Of a DNA stretch of 64,000 bases, positions 712-54,326 are shown piece by piece (the stretch's first letter is position 1; each line of letters opens with the position of its first letter). Under the pieces are notes generated by a model. It was given only the letters and a program-made list of their open reading frames with translations, was not told the origin of the DNA and made no database searches. Source of the DNA: an uncultured bacterium (GTDB taxonomy: Bacteria > Patescibacteriota > Minisyncoccia > UBA6257 > 2-01-FULL-56-20). The translations under genes were made by a program, and so were the position numbers. Where the stretch lies: contig CAWDZM010000001.1 in NCBI GenBank assembly GCA_963807165.1, positions 641,471-705,470 on the forward strand, given 5' to 3'.

Positions 712-784
712 TGCCGCGAGAGAGAATCGAACTCACTTAACTCGCTCTTCAGGCGAGGGCTTTACCATTAAGCTATCGCGGCAT
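712..784 (-). tRNA. tRNA-Phe (anticodon GAA)
   Basis: The reverse complement gives GCCGCGA / D-arm TAGCTTAATGGTAAAGC / anticodon stem-loop CTCGC-CTGAAGA-GCGAG / T-arm GTTCGATTC / 3' TCGCGGC-A. The cloverleaf is perfect and CCA is not encoded. Confidence 0.85.
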
Positions 785-2840: not shown

Positions 2841-2942
2841 GCCGAATTTTCAGCAATTCATTACTATCATTTGAAGAGGAATTTCTCCCTTTGGAAGATC
2901 GGCAAGCCAATCGATCTCATAGAATGCATATTCTTTGCAGTT

Positions 2943-3101
2943 TCAATTCCGTGTCCCGTTTCTAGTGAGGCGATAGACGCCGTGCTTGAGATTTCCGCTT
3001 CCGAGATTGAGCCTATCTCCGGTAATCGGCAACTCTGGAAGCTCTATTATGAGGTGATAAATTCCTCTTCCGGTTTTTGATCCGGTAAGAATAGTTTCCA
3101 T
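2943..3101 (-). CDS. small hypothetical protein (52 aa) with strong Shine-Dalgarno
   Basis: METILTGSKTGRGIYHLIIELPELPITGDRLNLGSGNLKHGVYRLTRNGTRN. GAAAGGAG sits 6 nt upstream of the ATG and a terminator lies ~100 nt downstream. Not in the ORF track (<60 aa). Confidence 0.45.
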   Translation of the reverse strand: METILTGSKTGRGIYHLIIELPELPITGDRLNLGSGNLKHGVYRLTRNGTRN

Positions 3102-3147
3102 GTCGCGCTCCTTTCTGCTCTGATTGTTATATAAAGTTTAGAGTAAT

Positions 3148-3822
3148 TTGGCAATATATGGGGTTCAGGTATTGTTGGATACCCCACCATTTTTCTACTG
3201 GAATTTTCTCTCAAACTTTGCTAAAATATATCCATATATGGTTATCAATTACTTTGGAAATGGCTGTTTTCGATTGCAGAGCGGGGAGACGTCGGTGCTC
3301 GTAAACCCGGAGAACAATCGCTTGAAAGCGGATGTGACGTTAAAGACTCTGACGGCCACGGCGGTGGATGCGGCAGCAGTCGGCGATGAACGGGTAGACG
3401 AAGTGGTCATCTCGTTCGCGGGCGAGTACGAAGAAAAAGAGATCGAGATATTGGGATTTCCGGTGCCGGAAGAATCGACGGATAAGTTTTTGAAGACGAC
3501 GTACGCGGTATTGTGGGAGGGAATGAAGTTTGTATTCCTCGGACATCTTTCTAAACCGATGGATGCGACGCTGATGGAAGAATTTTCGGAACCGGATGTG
3601 TTGATCTTGCCGGTGGGTGGCGGACACTTTCTTGAGCCGGAAGTTGCGGCGAAGATCGCAAAACAGCTGGAAGCGCGAATCGTGATCCCGAGCTTCTATA
3701 AAGATCCTGCGGAATTTTTGAAGGCGTTCGGCAAAAAAGCGGAGGACGTGGATAAATTTGTCTTCAAGCAAAAAGACATTCTTGCGGACAAGGGTCGCGT
3801 AGTAATCCTCAAAGCAAACTAA
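3148..3822 (+). CDS. MBL-fold (UPF0173-like) protein, canonical HxHxDH motif not evident
   Basis: The N-terminal MVINYFGNGCFRL..VLVNP and C-terminal VLILPVGGGHF..EARIVIPSFY resemble the short metal-dependent hydrolase family. The likely start is the Met at 3238. Confidence 0.5.
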   Translation: MAIYGVQVLLDTPPFFYWNFLSNFAKIYPYMVINYFGNGCFRLQSGETSVLVNPENNRLKADVTLKTLTATAVDAAAVGDERVDEVVISFAGEYEEKEIEILGFPVPEESTDKFLKTTYAVLWEGMKFVFLGHLSKPMDATLMEEFSEPDVLILPVGGGHFLEPEVAAKIAKQLEARIVIPSFYKDPAEFLKAFGKKAEDVDKFVFKQKDILADKGRVVILKAN

Positions 3823-4162: not shown

Positions 4163-6601
4163 ATGCCAGACATGGAACCACAGGAAATAACCAAAGAGCT
4201 CGGCGATTCGTATCTTAGCTATGCGATGTCAGTGATCGTCGCGCGCGCATTGCCGGACGTCCGCGATGGTATGAAGCCGGTGCACCGCCGCGTTTTGTGG
4301 GCGATGTGGGATATGGGCGTTCTCTCCACTGCCAAGTTCCGCAAGTCCGCATACGTCGTCGGCGAAACGATGGCAAAATACCATCCGCATGGCGACTCCT
4401 CTATATATGACACGATGGTGCGCATGGCACAGGATTTTTCTCTGCGCTATCCGCTCGTGCGCGGGCAGGGGAACTTCGGTTCGGTGGACGGTGATCCGCC
4501 GGCCGCCATGCGTTATACGGAGGCCAAGCTCGCCGCGATCGCCAACGAGATGCTTTCGGATATTGAGAAGGATACGGTTGATTGGATCCCAAACTATGAC
4601 GGCACGCGTAACGAGCCGACGGTGTTCCCGGCGCGGTTGCCAAATCTTCTTTTGAACGGCGCGCTCGGCATCGCGGTCGGCATGGCCACGAGCATCCCGC
4701 CGCATAACCTGAACGAGGTTGCTGACGCCATTTTATATTTAGCCGATCACGACGACGCAACGAGCGAGGACCTTTTGCAATTCATCAAAGGCCCGGACTT
4801 TCCGACGGGCGGCATTATCTATGACAACAAGGCGATCAAGGAGGCGTACGTTTCCGGGCGTGGCGGCGTCATCACGCGTGCCAAGACGGACATCGTGGAG
4901 AAAAAGAACAGCCGACAATTCGACATCGTCATTACGGAGATTCCGTATCAGGTCAACAAGTCCGAGCTTATCAAGACGATCGCGGAACTTGCGCAGGATA
5001 AGAAGATCGAGGGCATTCGTGATCTGCGCGATGAGTCCGACCGCGAGGGTATGCGCATCGTGATCGAATTGAAGAACGACGTTGCGCCGCAAAAGGTCTT
5101 GAACTGGCTCTTTAAGCACACTGACCTCGAAAAGAATTTCAACTTTAATATGATTGCGCTCGTGAACGGTATCGAGCCGCGTTTGCTGGATTTAAAAGAC
5201 ATCCTCGCCGAATACATCGCGCATCGCAAGGTGATTGTCACGCGCCGCACAAAGTTTGATCTCCGCAAGGCGGAGGAGCGTGCGCATATTTTGGAAGGGC
5301 TCGCCATCGCGCTCGACGCGATCGACAAGGTCATCGCGACCATCCGTAAGTCGGAAGACAAAGAAGTCGCCCACGTGAACTTGATGAAGAACTTCAAATT
5401 GAGCGCCCTGCAGGCGACTGCTATTTTGGAAATGCGATTGCAGACACTTGCGGCACTTGAGAGGATAAAGATCGAGACAGAGCTGAAGGAAAAGCATGCA
5501 CTCATCGAAGAGCTTAAGTTGATATTAAAGAGTACGACGCGTATTTTAAAGATCATTAAAGATGAAGTGATGGAGTTGAAGAATAAATATGGCGACGAAC
5601 GGCGCACGAAGGTCGTTGGCCGCGCAGTGGAATCCGTGAGCGATGAGGATCTCATCCCGGAAGAAGAAGCGATTGTGACGGTGAGTGGTGGCGGTTACAT
5701 CAAGCGCTTGCCGCCGGGCACGTTCAAGACTCAGAAGCGTGGCGGAAAAGGATTGATCGGTTCCGAGGTTGCCGATGAGGATTTCCTCTCGCACTTCTTT
5801 AGCGCCAACACACACGATAATGTGCTGTTCTTTACCGATCGCGGCCGCGTTTTCCAGACGAAGGTCTACGAGATCCCGCAGGCGACACGCACTTCTAAAG
5901 GCCGCGCTATTCAGAACTTCCTCGAGCTGCCGTCCGAAGAGAACGTGAGCGCTATCGTTAGCTATTCGGCAAAGGGCGCGAAGGCTGAGGGCAAGACCGG
6001 CAAAAAATATTTAATGATGGTCACAAAGCAAGGCGTCATTAAAAAGACACCGCTCGAAGATTTTGAAAACATTCGCCGCAATGGCATCATCGCGCTCTCG
6101 CTCAAGAAGGGCGATCAGCTCAAGTGGGCGCGCCTGACGAGCGGTACGGAGCAGGCGGTGCTCGCCACGCGGCAGGGCCAGTCCATTCGCTTTGATGAGA
6201 AGCAGGTGCGTCCGATGGGTCGCACGGCGGCGGGCGTTCGCGCGATCAAATTAAAAAAACAGAACGATGAAGTGGCCGGCTTTGATATAATAAGAGGAGA
6301 TGATGCGATGTTGCTGATCGTGATGGAGCACGGCTTCGCAAAGCAGACATCGCTCAAGGAATACAAAGTGCAGAGCCGCGGCGGATCGGGCATCAAGACG
6401 GCGGAGGTAACGCCGAAGACAGGAATGGTGGTGTCGGCGCATGTCGTCATGGAGGAAACAGAGATCTTCGCGCTGTCGGCAAAAGGACAGATGATCCGCA
6501 CGGAACTTTCTACGGTGCGCAAGACGGGCCGTTCGGCGCAAGGCGTGCACATCATGGATCTCAAGAACGGTGATCGAGTTGCGGGAACGGTAGTTATCTA
6601 A
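4163..6601 (+). CDS. gyrA: DNA gyrase subunit A
   Basis: [10 protein letters not shown] active-site region, the GyrA-box QRRGGKG, and C-terminal beta-pinwheel repeats. Confidence 0.95.
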
Positions 6602-15044: not shown

Positions 15045-15125
15045 GCCCGGGTGGTGAAATGGCATACACGTCAGCTTTAGGAGCTGATGCCGAAAGGCGT
15101 GGAGGTTCAAGTCCTCTCCCGGGCA
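15045..15125 (+). tRNA. tRNA-Leu (anticodon TAG) with long variable arm
   Basis: GCCCGGG acceptor, D-loop GTGGTGAAATGGCATACAC, anticodon loop TTTAGGA, variable arm TGCCGAAAGGCGT, T-arm GGAGGTTCAAGTCCTCT. CCA is not encoded. Confidence 0.85.
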
Positions 15126-20822: not shown

Positions 20823-21251
20823 ATGGATAATCCTTTAAGTAAAGTATTAGCGAAGGCTCCGCCGCCACCGCCGTTGGAGGTGAAGATCCGCACGATGCGA
20901 TCAGATATCGACTCGATGATGAAGAGCGGGGGAGGGGCGCCGTCATTTCAGAATGTGGCGGTCGCAGGACTTTCTCTCGAAGGGCATCAGGCGCCGACAT
21001 CTTCTCCGACGCCGATGCCCAATCTTGGTTCGTTCTCTACGCCTAGCGCGATAGTGACGACCCCGATTGCGCCGAGCGTCAGCGTTCCAGCTTCATCCAA
21101 CGCGCCACTTACTGCCACACCCATTGGCCATGAAGTTGCGCCGGAGGCCAGCTCGGGGAATAGTATTATGCCCCTCGTGATCGTGGTGATCGTAGCTATC
21201 ATCGCTATCGGCGTGGTGGGATATTTCGCCTACACCATTTTTGCAAAATAA
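20823..21251 (+). CDS. hypothetical protein with C-terminal TM anchor
   Basis: Pro/Ser-rich with a C-terminal hydrophobic helix. A terminator follows immediately. Confidence 0.5.
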   Translation: MDNPLSKVLAKAPPPPPLEVKIRTMRSDIDSMMKSGGGAPSFQNVAVAGLSLEGHQAPTSSPTPMPNLGSFSTPSAIVTTPIAPSVSVPASSNAPLTATPIGHEVAPEASSGNSIMPLVIVVIVAIIAIGVVGYFAYTIFAK

Positions 21252-21280
21252 AAATGCCCTCAGGGGCATTTTTATTTTAT
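21247..21280. terminator. bidirectional terminator (ATGCCCTCAGGGGCAT flanked by A- and T-runs)
   Basis: Lies between convergent genes 20823..21251 (+) and recA (-). Confidence 0.55.
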
Positions 21281-23378: not shown

Positions 23379-23427
23379 AGGCGCAGCAAGAACTATTTTC
23401 TTATTGCTTGAGTGATAAAATAAAAAA

Positions 23428-23460
23428 AACAAAAGACCCAGAAATGGGTCTTTTGTTTTC
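23428..23460. terminator. bidirectional terminator (AAAAGACCCAgaaaTGGGTCTTTT)
   Basis: Perfect 10-bp stem with A/T runs on both sides. Confidence 0.5.
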
Positions 23461-38100: not shown

Positions 38101-38530
38101 CGTTGATCCAGGCAAGCACGATCGCAGACCCTCGGCCTCTATGATGCCTCGGCTCCGTCGGTGCTCTTGGCTTCTTCAACAGCAACCTCAGACGATACAG
38201 CATGACGTTCACCTTTGCGAATCTGAACCGAACCAGTGGACAATTCCGTACAGCTCTACAAAGACATTACTCGTAGAAACGTTGTCTGTCGCCGACTGGC
38301 GGCGCTTTGGGCGGTTCGCTGACGAATGGCAACAGGTGGCAGTTATCAGGTGTTCTCACTGGTTAACAGTGGACTGATGGTCCGTCGTGGCACGGCGATG
38401 GTACGACGACGCTGGGTGCGAATACTTACGTTCGGCATTGGCTTAGCCCGTCTATCTCGATCGCCGGTTCCGAGCCGAACATCACTGACTTGTCCAACTA
38501 GTCTGGTATCCCTCCGATCCGATCGCTTGT
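35115..38530 (+). pseudogene. large secreted cell-surface protein: signal peptide + PG_binding_1 domain + Thr-run + ~100-aa repeats, shattered by >10 frameshifts/stops
   Basis: The intact N-terminus (35115-35777) has TFTSDLTVGSTGSAVMALQQFLIGQGDL ... GYFGPKTRAFV. Downstream, the reading frame switches repeatedly (track ORFs 35780, 36111, 36895, 37528, 37846, 38021 ...), yet repeat motifs such as DGSTQLG/DGSTQIG persist. A terminator follows at 38547. Confidence 0.55.
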
Positions 38531-38546
38531 GACGATCGGATAGGAA

Positions 38547-38580
38547 AAACAAAACAGCCCTTCGGGGCTGTTTTGTTTTG
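38547..38580 (+). terminator. rho-independent terminator (AAAACAGCCCttcgGGGCTGTTTTGTTTTG)
   Basis: Perfect stem plus U-run. Confidence 0.55.
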
Positions 38581-39395
38581 GGGAGGGGCGCATATTTTTA
38601 TCCGCACGGAGGGAATTTAAGATCTATTTAATGTCGCGAGGAGTATCGTGGGAGGGATGCAAGATTCCTCGCGATACAAAAAATTAATGATTATATCGAA
38701 GAATTTTTTCCTATGGCACAAGGAGAAGTAATCAGCACTCCAGAGGAAGAAATTTTATTTACTCCAAGATGTAAAAATATCGCGCAGAACGTTCAAACAT
38801 ATAGTCGAGCGGCGCTCTATAAACGATGGATTTGGAGTGAGCTGGTATAAAAGACTTACTAAGAAGTGCGCAAGATATAGTGGACAATCCGGAGGCAGTT
38901 AATTAGAAATACGAATCTAGTAAAATATCCTGAGAGAAGTATGATTGGGAGGTTGGATTCAGGAATAGAAGCGGCGATAATGGTGGTCGTGGATTGATCT
39001 CTTGAGGGAGAAAAAAAGTTATAACAATATTTCTGAAAGAAAGGCGTCAATTTTTGGCTTAATAAAAAAAGAGCCCATAGCTTTGTATCTGGAGGGGCGG
39101 CATCAATACAATAGCGAGTGTGTTGATTTCCCTCATCGAAAACGCACCTTGCGATACGCCCCCGCAGTGGAAGCCTTTCTGCCGTCAGATACAAAATTAT
39201 GAGTTGTTTACCATTTTAATCTACCTCGTCGCTATTCTTCCGTCAAATTTCTTTTAATCTTTATTTAATAACCTGCCCGCCGTCTGCTTGCCACCCATTT
39301 ACCACCCCCTTGTGCAGAAAACCCTTGATTTTGCTATACTAAAGGGGAGCTAAAATACAAAAGGTCGAGAAAAGAAACTAAATTTATCATCAATC

Positions 39396-39671
39396 ATGAA
39401 TAAAAAAGGATTAGTGGAAGCGGTCATGAAGGCAACGGGCATTGAAACGAAGGCAGCAACGGAGCGTGCGGTAGATGCGGTATTTGATACGATCGTAAAG
39501 ACCATGGGCCGCGGCGAGGAAGTCGCGATCACGGGCTTTGGAACGTTCCGCGTTGCCAAGCGCGCTGCGCGTGAAGGCCGCAACCCCAAGACCGGCGAAA
39601 AGATCCAGATCAAGGCTTCGATCAAGCCGAAGTTCCGCGCCGGCAAGCTTCTCAAAGAAGCAGTGCTGTAA
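39396..39671 (+). CDS. hup: DNA-binding protein HU
   Basis: 91 aa with the GFGTFRV arm motif and an extended -10 (TGcTATACT) upstream. Confidence 0.9.
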   Translation: MNKKGLVEAVMKATGIETKAATERAVDAVFDTIVKTMGRGEEVAITGFGTFRVAKRAAREGRNPKTGEKIQIKASIKPKFRAGKLLKEAVL

Positions 39672-39798
39672 TTGCTGAAAAAGGATCCTTCTTCAGTATC
39701 TTAAGATGAAAAGCACCGCGTGAGGCGGTGTTTTTCATATCTAAAATATTTTTTGAAAATTTAAAGATAGTTAATGAGGGGTTGCTATAATTGCGAGC

Positions 39799-40212
39799 AT
39801 GCAAAACCCAAATAAAGAGGACCGTGCGTTATCCGAATTTATAGAAAGCCACGTATTTTTTATTAGGGGGATGAGGGTAGTGCTGAGTACGCATCTTGCT
39901 AACTTGTATGAAATTGAGCCTCGCGTCCTGATCCAGGCTGTAAAAAGAAACAAGGGTCGTTTCCCGCACTCTTCCTTATTTCAGCTTAATGCAATTGAAT
40001 TCAGCGCTTTAAAATCACAAATTGTGATTTTAAAACATAATAGAATTCGACGTTCTTTGCCATATGCCTTTACTGAGCAGGGTGTAGTGATCCTTGCGAG
40101 TGTTTTGCGAAGCAGTCGTGCAATCGCTATGAATGCCGCGATTATAAGGAATTTTGTCCGACCACATCGCCCCTATTTAAAGGCACGCATCATTGCTCCG
40201 GGGTTGTGGTAA
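39799..40212 (+). CDS. ORF6N-domain protein (phage antirepressor-type N-terminal domain)
   Basis: IRG.RV.L...LA.LY..E...L.QAVKRN..RFP ... LPYAFTEQGV..L.SVLRS.RAI..N pattern. Confidence 0.7.
   Translation: MQNPNKEDRALSEFIESHVFFIRGMRVVLSTHLANLYEIEPRVLIQAVKRNKGRFPHSSLFQLNAIEFSALKSQIVILKHNRIRRSLPYAFTEQGVVILASVLRSSRAIAMNAAIIRNFVRPHRPYLKARIIAPGLW
40008..40034. repeat. 27-bp perfect palindrome TTTAAAATCACAAaTTGTGATTTTAAA embedded in the ORF6N coding sequence
   Basis: A second copy is at 53095-53127 inside the ORF6N remnant. Confidence 0.5.
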
Positions 40213-40718: not shown

Positions 40719-40790
40719 GCCCTCGTCGTTCAACGGATAGGACGCAAGCTTGCGGAGCCTGTAATCGTGGTTCGATTCCACGCGGGGGCA
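40719..40790 (+). tRNA. tRNA, probably Arg (anticodon GCG), with one A-C mismatch in the anticodon stem
   Basis: GCCCTCG acceptor (one G.U), D-arm GTTC-AACGGATA-GGAC, anticodon loop TTGCGGA, T-arm CGTGG-TTCGATT-CCACG, discriminator A. Confidence 0.55.
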
Positions 40791-41909: not shown

Positions 41910-41980
41910 GCGGGTATCGTATAACGGTATTACATCTGGTTGCCAATCAGACGACAGGGGTCCGACTCCCCTTACCCGCT
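41910..41980 (+). tRNA. tRNA-Gly (anticodon GCC) with short D-stem and TCCGACT T-loop
   Basis: GCGGGTA/TACCCGC acceptor, anticodon stem-loop TCTGG-TTGCCAA-TCAGA, T-arm AGGGG-TCCGACT-CCCCT. Confidence 0.65.
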
Positions 41981-51250: not shown

Positions 51251-51258
51251 GAGAAAAA

Positions 51259-51289
51259 AGAAACCCCACCGCTGTGGGGTTTCTTTTTA
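51259..51289 (+). terminator. rho-independent terminator (AAACCCCACcgctGTGGGGTTT + T-run)
   Basis: Stem plus U-run. Confidence 0.55.
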
Positions 51290-51312: not shown

Positions 51313-53031
51313 ATGACGAGTGATGAATTTTTGCAACAACTCCAAGCGCGGGGATTGATCACCGATGCGATCGCGGCGCGCCTTAAGCGCGATGCGATTG
51401 TCGGCAATGAATCGGCGGAGGATATCATCGGCCGCGAGCGGATCGTTCCCGATGAACAGGTCGCGGCGCTTAAAAGCGAGCTGCTCAAGGTTCCGTATAA
51501 AAAGATAGATCCCGAGGCGCTCGACGCGAAGCTCATGGGGTTTGTGCCGGAAGAGACCGCGCGTACCTATCACGCGATTCCGATCAGTCTACAAGATGGA
51601 CTGCTCATCGTTGGTATGTTGCATCCCGATGATCCGAAGGCGCAGGACGCGATGAAGTTCATCGCGCGACAGAATCATATCAATCTTGGAGTTTATCTTA
51701 TTTCATACAACGACCTCCAGGCGGCACTGCGGAAATATTCCCCGTATCGTGCGGAGATCGAGCAGGCGGTGCAGTCGCTCAATATAAAAGAGGGATCGGG
51801 CGGCCAGCAGGCGATCGAGCTCGAGGGCGGCGACAGTGCGGATGCGCCTATCATCAAGATCGTTGCGGATACATTCAAGGAAGCGGTGTTGAACAAAGCG
51901 TCCGACGTGCACATCGAACCGCAGCAGAAATCGTTGCGTATCCGCTTGCGTATTGATGGCGACTTACGCGAAGTGGCATCACTGCCGGTGGAACTTGCCC
52001 AACCGATCACGTCACGCGTGAAGGTTATTTCAAATTTAAAGATCGACGAGACGCGTGTGCCACAGGACGGTCGCTTCCGCGCAAAACTTTTTGATCGCAA
52101 CGTCGACTTCCGTGTTGCCACGTTTCCGACGCCGCTCGGCGAGAAGATCGCCATTCGCGTGCTTGATCCTTCGACCGGCTTGAAGAGTTTTGAAAAATTA
52201 GATCTGCTCGATCCGACGCGCGAGGTTATTAAAAAAGGGTTGGATAAGCCGTTCGGTATGGTGCTTATCACGGGTCCGACCGGTTCCGGAAAAACGACGA
52301 CGCTTTACGCGTTTTTGCAAACGCTCAACACCGAGGATGTGAATATCGTTTCACTCGAAGACCCGGTGGAATATTTCGTTTCCGGCATCAACCAGTCGCA
52401 GGTGCGACCGGAGATCGGCTACGACTTTGCATCGGGTTTGCGTCAGATTCTGCGCCAGGACCCAGACGTTATTATGGTCGGTGAAATCCGTGACAATGAG
52501 ACCGCCGGGCTTGCGGTGCAGGCGGCGCTCACCGGACACGTCGTGCTTTCCACGCTCCACACCAACAACAGCGCCGGCGTCATTCCGCGTCTCATCGATA
52601 TGAAGGTGGAGCCGTTTCTGCTTCCGGTGTCGCTCAGCTTGATCATCGCCCAACGTCTTGTGGGAGTGCTTTGCCCGGATTGCAAAGCTCCCGAGGCCGC
52701 CCCGCCGGAAGTGCAAAAGATCGTCGCGCAAGCGCTCGAAGGGTTGCCCTCAAGCGTTATCGCGCAGTTTACCGCGCCGTACCAGATTTACCACGCAAAA
52801 GGCTGCGCCACGTGCAAGGGCCGCGGCGTTGTTGGCCGCACCGGAATTTACGAGGCATTCCTCGTCACCAAGGAGATCGAGGATGTCGTCAGCTCCGGCG
52901 TTACCACACAAAAGATCACCGCGCAGGCAAAGGCGCAGGGTATGATCACGCTTCGCCAGGATGGTATCGTGAAAGCGCTAAAGGGAGTGGTTTCGATAGA
53001 GGAGATCATCAGAGAGACGGAGGAGGCGTAG
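51313..53031 (+). CDS. pilB: type IV pilus assembly ATPase PilB (GspE family)
   Basis: Walker A GPTGSGKTTT, Asp/His boxes and a C-terminal tetracysteine (CPDC...CATC). Confidence 0.9.
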   Translation: MTSDEFLQQLQARGLITDAIAARLKRDAIVGNESAEDIIGRERIVPDEQVAALKSELLKVPYKKIDPEALDAKLMGFVPEETARTYHAIPISLQDGLLIVGMLHPDDPKAQDAMKFIARQNHINLGVYLISYNDLQAALRKYSPYRAEIEQAVQSLNIKEGSGGQQAIELEGGDSADAPIIKIVADTFKEAVLNKASDVHIEPQQKSLRIRLRIDGDLREVASLPVELAQPITSRVKVISNLKIDETRVPQDGRFRAKLFDRNVDFRVATFPTPLGEKIAIRVLDPSTGLKSFEKLDLLDPTREVIKKGLDKPFGMVLITGPTGSGKTTTLYAFLQTLNTEDVNIVSLEDPVEYFVSGINQSQVRPEIGYDFASGLRQILRQDPDVIMVGEIRDNETAGLAVQAALTGHVVLSTLHTNNSAGVIPRLIDMKVEPFLLPVSLSLIIAQRLVGVLCPDCKAPEAAPPEVQKIVAQALEGLPSSVIAQFTAPYQIYHAKGCATCKGRGVVGRTGIYEAFLVTKEIEDVVSSGVTTQKITAQAKAQGMITLRQDGIVKALKGVVSIEEIIRETEEA

Positions 53032-53069
53032 GAGACCGTAGAGATTGTCCCCGGTTCATTCATGCTCAT

Positions 53070-53178
53070 TTCAGCTTAGCGCCAATAAATTCAACGTTTT
53101 AAAATCACAATCTGTGATTTTAAAACGTAACAATATCCGCCGTTCTTTGCTGTATACCTGTAGCGAGCGAGGGCTTGG
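53070..53178 (+). pseudogene. decayed fragment of an ORF6N-domain gene retaining the internal palindrome (53095-53127)
   Basis: ~65-70% nt identity to 39985-40095 of the intact ORF6N gene. It would translate FQLSANKFNVLKSQSVILKRNNIRRSLLYTCSERGLG. Confidence 0.5.
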
Positions 53179-53252
53179 ATATGCCTCAATTTTATAATTA
53201 ATATTTAATCCTCCCATTCACCTTACTTCTCTTGATGTGGTAATATTATCTT

Positions 53253-54326
53253 ATGGATGATTTCAAACAGCAGCTCAACGATCTTTTGACGACGACGGCG
53301 AAGCAGAATGCGTCGGACCTTCACCTTGCGGTGGGGCGCAAGCCGACGTTGCGTATTGATGGCGTGCTGATCCCACTGGAGAAAGAGCCGGTTATGACGC
53401 CGGAGTCGGCGGAGGGAATCATCTCGCAGCTGCTCACGCCGGAGCAAAAGACGAAGCTCATCACTCAACGGCAGGTGGACTTCGCATACAGCTTGGAGGA
53501 CAAGGCACGGTTCCGCGTGAACGTTTATTTCCAGCGCGGCTATTTGGCGGCGGCGCTTCGGCTCATCCCTACGCGCATCAAGACGATCGAAGAGTTGAAT
53601 CTTCCGCCGCTTTTGCACGACTTCGCACAGCTTTCCCAGGGCTTCGTGCTGGTGGTGGGCCCCGCCGGACACGGAAAATCTTCCACGCTTGCGGCGATGG
53701 TGGATGAGATCAACCACACGCGCACTGATCACATTATCACGATCGAGGATCCGGTGGAATATCTTTTTACGCAGGACAAGTGCATCGTCTCGCAGCGCGA
53801 GGTGGGCAGTGATGCCACGAGCTTTCACTCGGCGCTCCGCACCGTTCTGCGCCAGGATCCGGACGTCGTGATGATCGGCGAGATGCGCGATGCGGTCTCC
53901 ATCGGCACGGCCATGACCGCTTCCGAAACCGGGCACTTGGTTGTTTCAACATTGCATACCAATTCCGCGTCGCAGACGATCGATCGTATCATCGACTCAT
54001 TCCCCGCAGAACAGCAGGGACAGGTCACGTCACAGCTCGCCGCGACACTTGTCGCCATCGTTTCGATCCGCTTGCTCCCGCGCATTTCCGGCGGCCGTAT
54101 TCCGGCGATGGAGATCATGATCGTCAACCCGGCTATCCGCAATCTTATCCGCGAGCGCAAAACGTATCAGATCGATCTCGTGATCGAAACGAGCTTGCAG
54201 GAGGGGATGGTCACGCTCAACCGCTCACTGGTTAATTTGATCAAGAATAAAGAGATCACATTAGAAAACGGCGAGTTGTATTCACTCAATCCGTCGGAGC
54301 TACGCATTCTATTAGAAAGAACATAA
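53253..54326 (+). CDS. pilT: twitching-motility ATPase PilT
   Basis: Walker A GPAGHGKSST and ~350 aa length. No N-terminal GspE-N domain. Confidence 0.9.
   Translation: MDDFKQQLNDLLTTTAKQNASDLHLAVGRKPTLRIDGVLIPLEKEPVMTPESAEGIISQLLTPEQKTKLITQRQVDFAYSLEDKARFRVNVYFQRGYLAAALRLIPTRIKTIEELNLPPLLHDFAQLSQGFVLVVGPAGHGKSSTLAAMVDEINHTRTDHIITIEDPVEYLFTQDKCIVSQREVGSDATSFHSALRTVLRQDPDVVMIGEMRDAVSIGTAMTASETGHLVVSTLHTNSASQTIDRIIDSFPAEQQGQVTSQLAATLVAIVSIRLLPRISGGRIPAMEIMIVNPAIRNLIRERKTYQIDLVIETSLQEGMVTLNRSLVNLIKNKEITLENGELYSLNPSELRILLERT

Follow-up and report, generated by a model that had tools for sequence, protein, structure and literature searches.

A conserved palindrome embedded in the ORF6N gene family of Patescibacteriota and other bacteria

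We analysed a 64,000-nucleotide stretch of an uncultured Patescibacteriota genome (GenBank assembly GCA_963807165.1, contig CAWDZM010000001.1, positions 641,471 to 705,470 of the forward strand; hereafter the window). It encodes an intact, short ORF6N protein whose gene contains a perfect palindrome, and a second, longer copy of the palindrome lies between the pilus genes pilB and pilT. We find that this palindrome is a nucleic-acid element of the ORF6N family, probably a selected one, and not a side effect of the encoded peptide. Nearly all ORF6N genes that we retrieved carry a palindrome with 13-17-nt arms at the same motif, and the arms vary in sequence yet stay complementary. The gene and the two palindromes of the window are as follows.

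39799..40212, plus strand: ORF6N gene, intact short form, 137 aa (Pfam PF10543 and PDC-S05 matches, synteny)
40008..40034: palindrome copy 1, TTTAAAATCACAA-A-TTGTGATTTTAAA, with 13-nt arms and one central base; encodes L71-K79
53094..53128: palindrome copy 2, ACGTTTTAAAATCACA-ATC-TGTGATTTTAAAACGT, with 16-nt arms and a 3-nt centre

The palindrome is conserved by covariation

Both palindromes had been noticed in a first-pass annotation of the window and are present as claimed, with copy 1 read in frame as A-L-K-S-Q-I-V-I-L-K-H inside the open reading frame (ORF) 39799-40212. Copy 2 had been given 15-bp arms at 53095-53127; it is indeed a palindrome, and its real arms are one base longer, as listed above. 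The pattern TTTAAAATCACA-N3-TGTGATTTTAAA has exactly two matches in the window (40008-40034 and 53098-53124); allowing as many as three mismatches yields no third, and 100 dinucleotide-shuffled sequences contain none. In a global alignment of the two copies the arms are identical at 24/24 positions and the flanks at 64/89 (72%; P ~4e-4 at flank identity). The claim that the palindrome is constrained more strongly than the surrounding coding sequence is borne out, and it generalises beyond the window. Three flank differences of copy 2 from copy 1 each lengthen the stem by one base pair, and the fold energy z-score of copy 2 is -6.5 on the plus strand and -6.0 on the minus strand.

Arm pairing was measured in 80 metagenome loci that had been retrieved by protein similarity alone (relatives 44-63% identical). 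The DNA was read beneath the motif L[KR]SQ[IF]V[IT][SL], and the 80 unique in-gene sites were placed by profile alignment, without use of their palindromic character. Over the 12 pairs at distances 2-13 from the centre, a mean of 11.25 are Watson-Crick; 43 sites (54%) are perfect and 20 have a single mismatch. When each peptide is kept and its synonymous codons are redrawn from the family's own usage, 4.69 +/- 0.20 of 12 pairs form and 0.01% of sites are perfect. Exchange of the 3' arms between genes gives 9.33 +/- 0.12 pairs, with a maximum of 9.71 in 500 trials. In a gap-free alignment of the sites (A3), over which 14 pairs were scored, 91% of cells are paired, 11 of the 14 pairs change on both sides, and 148 cells are compensatory versus 54.6 +/- 7.2 in shuffles (0/500 reach the observed value); with the partner slid by 1-3 columns, 21-44% are paired.

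The covariation extends to the encoded residues. Codon 72 (K/R) and codon 77 (I/T) occur as AAA/ATT 21 times, AGG/ACC 12 times, AAG/ACT 10 times and AGA/ATC 10 times, so that whether residue 77 is Ile or Thr follows the choice of synonymous Arg or Lys codon. Likewise, Ser73 and Val76 are encoded by TCA/GTG in 73 genes and by TCG/GCG, which turns Val into Ala, in three; Leu71 and the codon of Ser78 occur as TTG/TCA or as TTA/TTA, which turns Ser into Leu.

The annotation had itself raised the alternative that the palindrome is a by-product of codon choice in a conserved peptide. Close relatives show an almost invariant motif there, L[KR]SQ[IF]V[IT]S (LKSQIVIS), and one possible encoding of SQIV is inherently palindromic; but this explanation is refuted by the resampling, the arm swapping, the residue-changing covariation, the non-coding copies and the unrelated peptides that keep the palindrome in distant genes (below), and we give it practically no chance of being right. 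The most conserved motif of ORF6N is thus conserved largely through the DNA or RNA that encodes it, and the coupled residues (K/R with I/T, S with L, V with A), which keep the hairpin, call for caution when function is deduced from motifs.

Orthologs and distant members of the family

Homologues of PilT point to Candidatus Paceibacterota as the source of the window. The short ORF6N gene is syntenic in four contigs of related Paceibacterota, in the order PG_binding_1 protein, HU, ORF6N and a 155-aa protein. Among five orthologs from the candidate phyla radiation (CPR), 17/65 codons of invariant residues are identical, including those of K72, S73, V76 and I77. Three of the orthologs (L153, L154 and L155) read TTG AAA TCA CAA/CAT TTT GTG ATT TCA at the site; relative to them the window has the synonymous change TTG>TTA at L71 paired with TCA>TTA (S78L), and a fourth ortholog (L156) carries the A.C intermediate, TTA with TCA.

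Beyond the CPR, we compared nine ORF6N genes carried on plasmids of cultured bacteria. In five of them a palindrome whose arms are 11 nt or longer lies within the gene, at the same position of the domain:

Legionella pneumophila plasmid: in-gene palindrome over peptide LRSQIVTLE
Bacteroides ovatus plasmid: atgtcatcacaATTtgtgatgacat, over peptide MSSQFVMT
Haliovirga plasmid: in-gene palindrome over peptide LVSQSVIP
Segatella copri plasmid: gaggttatcaaaAAAtttgataacctc, 13-nt arms, over the unrelated peptide EVIKKFDNL
Legionella geestiana plasmid: gaactggtcgaaAATttcgaccggttc, 13-nt arms, over the unrelated peptide ELVENFDRF

Since the palindrome is kept over unrelated peptides, it predates the peptide and is the more general of the two, without being universal. 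In the Butyrivibrio gene the in-gene site has decayed, and a palindrome with 16-nt arms lies 29 nt upstream of the start codon.

Two of these plasmids show further arrangements. The Segatella copri plasmid NZ_CP152486 (L144; 4140 bp) has two genes only, a replication initiator and the palindrome-bearing ORF6N. On the Alistipes indistinctus plasmid (L160), where ORF6N is without an internal palindrome, a 13-nt-arm palindrome (caactgtcgcaaATTttgcgacagttg, positions 103-133) precedes a row of genes for KilA-N, a hypothetical protein, ORF6N and Abi; it lies ~80 nt upstream of the first of them, KilA-N.

Free-standing copies, fragments and duplications

The palindrome travels with ORF6N, as the annotation had supposed: free-standing copies occur near ORF6N genes, and decayed fragments of the gene retain it. 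Among the loci compared, core palindromes stand free 21 times upstream and four times downstream of ORF6N genes, and seven of them are centred 31-56 nt before the start of the ORF6N domain match. Some form arrays. In L067 the 270 bp between a tRNA gene and the ORF6N start hold six different palindromes; in L081 six or seven are spread over 400 bp, and L059 has three. The spacing is irregular (39-61 bp in L067, 49-79 bp in L081), and the palindromes within an array differ. The array of L067 begins 13 nt after the tRNA gene.

In loci that had not been selected by the palindrome pattern, the centre of TCRCA-N3-TGYGA is 3 nt long in 72/72 in-gene and 28/30 free-standing sites, the latter being free of coding constraint. 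Centre triplets are used in both orientations (AAT and ATT), and the core has the variants TCGCA, TGCCA, TCAAA and TCGAA. Window-type sequence was found in 11 genome contigs, inside ORF6N genes, upstream of them or alone; these contigs come from Bacilli, Omnitrophota, Gammaproteobacteria, Gallionellaceae, Paceibacterota, Fibrobacter and a deltaproteobacterium. A degenerate pattern gave 53 sites in viral contigs, of which 23 are fully complementary at the four degenerate pairs versus 3.3 expected, and the exact window-type pattern gave no match there. No ORF6N gene lies within the fetched stretch at 33 of the 53 sites, and the solitary palindromes among them have no common neighbour, their contexts being heterogeneous and intergenic. 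The consensus site has no match in 5,426 complete E. coli genomes.

Decayed ORF6N fragments with a perfect palindrome were found in the window and in L088, L084, L051, L054 and L087. The L088 fragment shares the centre ATC with copy 2 of the window, and the still more decayed L087 fragment has 19-nt arms. In four genes the hairpin segment is tandemly duplicated in frame, which places two LxSQxVxS units in the protein:

L040, 3180-3250
L060, 1020-1080
L072, 3190-3260
L075, 3170-3260

The first unit of L072 is decayed and the second has 19-nt arms. The ORF6N gene of L013 ends, truncated, just past the palindrome. On the L. pneumophila plasmid, near-identical palindromes at a distance of 713 bp bracket the 3' part of the gene, and in L054 they do so at a distance of 409 bp. 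On the former (L145, NZ_CP048619) they lie at 4169-4193 and 4883-4906, the second 18 nt past the stop codon; in L054 they lie at 3187 and 3596, the second inside a short extra ORF6N fragment. A comparison of identity between the N-terminal and C-terminal halves of the genes gave no clear breakpoint at the palindrome, and is uninformative given the uniform conservation of the C-terminal half.

Copy 2 and the insertion between pilB and pilT

The surroundings of copy 2 comprise the following features.

51313-53031: pilB
53035..53205: insertion of ~170 bp in the pilB-pilT spacer, specific to the window's lineage, carrying the ORF6N fragment
53057..53176, plus strand: ORF6N-derived fragment, residues 57-96, with no start codon and the remaining domain missing
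53253-54326: pilT, with its ATG at 53253

Copy 2 is most readily understood as what remains of a second ORF6N gene. The fragment around it has 77.8% nucleotide identity to the intact gene over 117 bp (blastn) and 60% amino-acid identity to its protein, still in frame (tblastn E=5e-10), and matches positions 62-101 of the ORF6N profile built here (E=4e-10). The annotation had correctly placed an ORF6N remnant between pilB and pilT, but the extent (53070-53178) and identity (65-70%) that it gave have to be replaced by those above.

In the closest relative (L148, PilT 96% identical) the pilB-pilT spacer is 49 bp long and has no insertion, and its match to the window picks up again at ~53206. This places copy 2 inside a lineage-specific insertion and means that it is not a conserved pilT control element, a role that is ruled out by the relatives without it. 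In two other relatives the spacers, 79 and 200 bp long, are unrelated. The 3' end of copy 2 is 125 bp upstream of the pilT ATG, the distance that the annotation had pointed to, and this position is probably incidental. What looked like an odd insertion is in this way explained as a relic of ORF6N rather than as a pilus regulator. Co-option of copy 2, whether as a pilB terminator or as a site that regulates pilT, would suit its place between the two genes; an intrinsic-terminator scan, which leaves copy 1 unreported, reports a terminator-like site at copy 2 on the minus strand only, with GC in 4/16 pairs. However, the plus strand has no T-tract, the spacers of the relatives lack copy 2 or are unrelated, the pilT-proximal sequence common to the closest relative begins downstream of the insertion, and the window's native terminator-like hairpins have GC-rich stems flanked by A and T tracts, all of which makes co-option quite improbable.

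These native hairpins are four perfect inverted repeats with 15-nt arms (21245-21278, 23426-23459, 38546-38579 and 51255-51288) of a single design, in which an A-rich run is followed by a short GC stem, a 4-nt loop and a T-rich run. They resemble intrinsic terminators that work in both directions and differ markedly from the ORF6N palindrome.

Two other origins were rejected. The insertion is not a unit resembling a miniature inverted-repeat transposable element, as its flanks match nothing else compared and only its ORF6N-like core does. A duplicated att site flanking an island at 40-53 kb is disfavoured by composition and gene content, which look chromosomal, and further by the fragment being homologous on both sides of the palindrome and just 78% identical. 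At the left edge of the insertion (53014-53044), the last 18 bases of pilB (GAGACGGAGGAGGCGTAG) are directly followed by a shortened repeat of them (GAGACCGTAG), which may be a scar of the insertion event.

The ORF6N protein and its genomic setting

The window protein matches Pfam PF10543 with 85.9 bits (cut-off 27.8; E=2.4e-24) over profile positions 2-86 of 86, and the PADLOC PDC-S05 profiles with E=9.4e-37. Across this protein and its relatives the PDC-S05 matches range from E 1e-36 to 1e-121, the L. pneumophila plasmid protein being a full-length match (E=3.8e-121). PDC-S05 is a candidate defence system of the ORF6N/RhuM single-gene type, and no embedded palindrome has been reported for it. 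In a preprint, one representative, unrelated to the window protein, protected E. coli against T7, T5 and T4, with plating of T7 and T5 down ~1000-fold (bioRxiv 10.1101/2024.09.26.614923). That representative was described as a RhuM-domain protein, whereas the window protein is the short CPR form, and the CPR gene is a conserved syntenic chromosomal gene.

An AlphaFold model of the window protein has a mean predicted local distance difference test score (pLDDT) of 78 and a predicted template modelling score (pTM) of 0.72. Residues 71-80, encoded by the palindrome, form a coil between a helix and a strand with a mean pLDDT of 61, the domain's lowest-confidence block, which fits the substitutions and duplications that are tolerated there. 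The best fold matches are Ski/Dachshund winged-helix DNA-binding domains, at weak scores (E 0.4-0.6, TM 0.42/0.56), and no solved structure related by sequence was found.

The relatives are single co-oriented genes wedged into operons (ilvD/ilvB, bshC/mutL, dnaN, aminotransferase and aroA). At L072, L039, L028 and L035 (~2900-3600) the gene sits between housekeeping genes with almost no spacer, and after dnaN the stop and start codons overlap. Such wedged, spacer-poor placement is the behaviour of a small selfish or defence gene. Many relatives are located in type I restriction-modification or Abi neighbourhoods. An association with phages is disfavoured by the near absence of the family from cultured-phage records (just three weak matches among 50,697) together with the absence of the exact window-type pattern from viral contigs. 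The cis element, its free-standing copies and the protein together offer a testable handle on a mechanism-poor family that is a candidate for phage defence.

Immediately upstream of ORF6N, in the window (39396-39671) and in the four orthologous Paceibacterota contigs, lies an HU-family gene, and on the Butyrivibrio plasmid pCY186 (L159, 596-2451) an HU-family gene is found two genes upstream of ORF6N. Since bent and cruciform DNA is bound by HU, the pairing of HU with ORF6N may bear on a structure-forming site.

A possible self-site of ORF6N, and its rivals

The annotation had offered three functions, a protein-binding operator, a recombination or nicking site and an RNA hairpin, and all three stay in contention, ranked as follows. 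Arm complementarity that holds regardless of sequence has one of two sources: pairing between the arms, in a hairpin or cruciform, or copying of one arm from the other. The reading that we favour, tentatively and as something short of probable, is that the palindrome acts on DNA as a self-site of the ORF6N protein. ORF6N, a predicted winged-helix-like DNA binder that usually has a coiled-coil tail, would bind the palindrome as its cognate two-fold-symmetric site. One site would lie inside the gene, in the segment that encodes a tolerant surface loop, and many lineages would have extra sites, either arrayed immediately before the start codon or placed at the promoter of the operon. Recognition could proceed through the inner half-sites (TCACA-N3-TGTGA and variants), with the outer arms held complementary either by a need for hairpin or cruciform extrusion or by arm-to-arm templated repair that homogenises an existing palindrome. 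Binding might result in autoregulation, or mark the locus as self. In the window, copy 1 would be the resident in-gene site, and copy 2 the site left over from a second ORF6N gene, nearly all of which was deleted after its insertion between pilB and pilT.

The palindrome, its conservation across the family, the covariation, the free-standing copies and the status of copy 2 as an insertion are shown by the data; binding by ORF6N, action at the DNA level and the outcome of binding are all three steps that we infer. DNA is preferred over RNA because G-U is about as rare as A.C at all positions but one, the centre occurs in both orientations, the triloop is fixed and perfect copies exist in gene-less fragments. 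The ORF6N protein is suggested as the binder because free-standing copies track ORF6N genes, adjoin their starts or putative operon promoters, and are better conserved in the core than in the outer arms. The two-fold symmetry and fixed half-site spacing of a dimer operator are both seen in TCRCA-N3-TGYGA.

Several points weigh against a self-site. DNA binding by ORF6N is itself a prediction, and the half-sites of a dimer operator, being independent, should not covary, so that an extra assumption is needed. The outer arms of sites beside one gene differ (L067 and L081), which means that recognition must be limited to the core, and the core varies too. The CPR orthologs, including the window, have the in-gene site only and none upstream, and by consensus promoter scans the upstream sites do not lie on clear -35/-10 boxes. 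Among the nine distant plasmid genes, those of Treponema, Sulfuricurvum and Alistipes have no in-gene palindrome; the annotation had named other ORF6N paralogs of the genome without the palindrome as evidence against its proposal, and the members that lack it here are distant homologues only, these three of the nine. Finally, at the pair at distance 7 from the centre (d=7), the sense strand has A.C 14 times and G.T never, an asymmetry that a purely symmetric double-stranded DNA model does not predict. It hints at a strand-specific constraint, with G.T or G.U tolerated on the antisense strand, although a preference for some codon or residue at this single position may equally be the cause.

An RNA hairpin, formed by the ORF6N mRNA and its 5' leader or else by an antisense transcript, with a role in mRNA stability, processing or translation of ORF6N or its host operon, is an unlikely but serious rival to the self-site. 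Sequence-independent covariation of arms is the classic signature of a base-paired structure, and the predicted folds are strong (-15 to -24 kcal/mol, z-scores -3 to -6.5). Upstream copies in L059 and L082 lie between possible promoters and the ribosome-binding site, ORF6N is co-oriented and tightly packed in operons, so that an internal hairpin could affect the transcript, and the sense-strand A.C excess at d=7 would be G.U on an antisense RNA. On the other hand, G-U pairs make up ~3% of the A3 cells, and outside d=7 they are about as rare as A.C on the sense strand (16 versus 17), while at d=7 the sense strand has only the non-pairing A.C. Centre triplets in both orientations, a loop length fixed at 3 nt and palindromes that are perfect in fragments with no ORF6N left to control speak against RNA as well. 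An intrinsic terminator is ruled out by the lack of a U-tract. A known RNA family is likewise ruled out: Rfam at its gathering score returned four tRNAs over the window and nothing at the palindrome, where only chance-level microRNA and small RNA matches (E>1) were seen.

Less likely again is a DNA hairpin that serves as a recombination, nicking or mobility site, by which ORF6N cassettes, gene halves or hairpin units are copied, swapped or inserted. It would account for ORF6N being dropped singly into unrelated operons and type I restriction-modification loci, for palindrome-centred short fragments at unrelated places (the window, L088, L084, L051 and L054), for the in-frame duplications and the truncation of L013 exactly after the palindrome, for the identical palindromes that bracket the 3' part of the gene on the L. 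pneumophila plasmid and in L054, and for the L067 array directly after a tRNA gene; copy 2, too, is an insertion. Yet no recombinase, HUH enzyme or integrase is consistently adjacent, the operon insertions have almost no non-coding flanks and neither terminal hairpins nor target duplications, there are just two copies in 64 kb, and the comparison of gene halves gave no clear breakpoint signal.

Similarly doubtful is a non-functional, self-perpetuating palindrome, which would have arisen by chance in a tolerant loop and been perfected by intrastrand template switching (quasi-palindrome correction) that copies arm from arm at a rate above that of point mutation. In E. coli, correction of quasi-palindromes by template switching is well established as a mechanism of mutation. 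In favour of this reading, Watson-Crick pairing is near perfect and shows no preference for G.T, the encoded loop is of low confidence and tolerates substitutions and duplications, and the palindrome persists and even lengthens in fragments that are non-coding (arms of 16-19 nt in the window, L088 and L087). The reading leaves unexplained, however, that one and the same position of the domain holds palindromes of differing sequence in bacteria ranging from CPR to Legionella, Bacteroidota and Fusobacteriota, and that free-standing copies, alike in their core and with a centre fixed at 3 nt, cluster just upstream of ORF6N. Other long odd-centred palindromes in the loci and the window are also few and terminator-like.

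We also hold to be improbable, at much the same level, a hairpin-dependent selfish or defence cassette, in which ORF6N would recognise an extruded hairpin or cruciform, both at its own embedded palindrome and at the free-standing copies, and thereby control toxicity or expression of the gene, or mediate copying of segments centred on the hairpin. If true, a structure-specific nucleic-acid signal would have dictated the top protein motif of a domain family throughout that family's existence.

Comparison with known elements

Sites inside the gene of their own binder are known from the lambda ori iterons in gene O, parS in spo0J/parB and the internal operators lacO2 and galOI. Like these, the ORF6N palindrome is a site within the gene of a predicted DNA binder with extra copies nearby, and, as in the lambdoid O iterons, the in-frame repeat number of the site-coding segment varies (L040, L060 and L075). 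In contrast to them, binding by ORF6N is predicted, the arms covary freely rather than being conserved half-sites, the site holds one domain position across phyla, and no origin or partition function is indicated.

Repetitive extragenic palindromic (REP) sequences and bacterial interspersed mosaic elements (BIMEs), with their REP-associated tyrosine transposases (RAYTs, TnpA-REP), are likewise short clustered palindromes with covarying arms that flank a specific co-occurring gene. The ORF6N palindrome differs in having two copies in 64 kb, no GTAG-type tetranucleotide and a main copy that is in-gene and translated; with this low copy number, and with ORF6N rather than an HUH/Y1 enzyme as the gene, it does not belong to the REP/RAYT class.

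Rickettsia palindromic elements (RPEs) are ~100-150 bp long and lie in frame in many unrelated genes of one genus. They share with the ORF6N palindrome that palindromic DNA is translated within a structurally tolerant region of a protein, but the latter is 27-39 bp long and sits at a fixed position of one domain family in many phyla. Cis-acting RNA elements of coding regions, such as the viral cis-acting replication elements (CREs), resemble it in that stem covariation steers codon and amino-acid choice, and the compensatory covariation expected of a structured RNA is seen here (both sides change in most pairs); unlike them, it is almost without G-U, has a fixed triloop, both centre orientations and gene-less copies, and matches no Rfam family.

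Two further classes were rejected. Integron attC sites are imperfect, 57-141 bp long, with extrahelical bases, and lie at the 3' end of a cassette in association with intI, whereas the ORF6N palindrome is short, perfect and mid-gene, and no integrase was seen in the neighbourhoods examined. CRISPR arrays consist of identical, regularly spaced direct repeats, and the palindromes in ORF6N arrays differ and are irregularly spaced. In the literature on ORF6N we found no description of the palindrome, and no paper describing the element was found; the sole paper found with the core sequence lists it as a spurious CRISPR call.

None of the own-gene sites, REP/RAYT, RPEs or coding-embedded RNA structures fits on its defining features. 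The ORF6N palindrome is a coding-embedded cis element, and what makes it unusual is its spread across phyla, the coupled amino-acid changes that it drives and its place in a candidate defence gene.

Other features of the locus

A second codon-identical block, codons 85-94 (CGT TCT TTG CCA TAY GCC ... GAG CAG), is found in the five CPR orthologs; in the window it lies at 40050-40085 and is partly kept in the fragment at 53140-53176. This block may be lineage-specific, since the same codons vary in the wider family. The stretch that includes the HU and ORF6N genes (38400-40200) has a GC content of 0.40-0.45, versus 0.50-0.56 around it. The tRNA genes of the window lie at 712-782 (minus strand), 15045-15125, 40719-40790 and 41910-41980, and two of these four are within 2 kb downstream of ORF6N.

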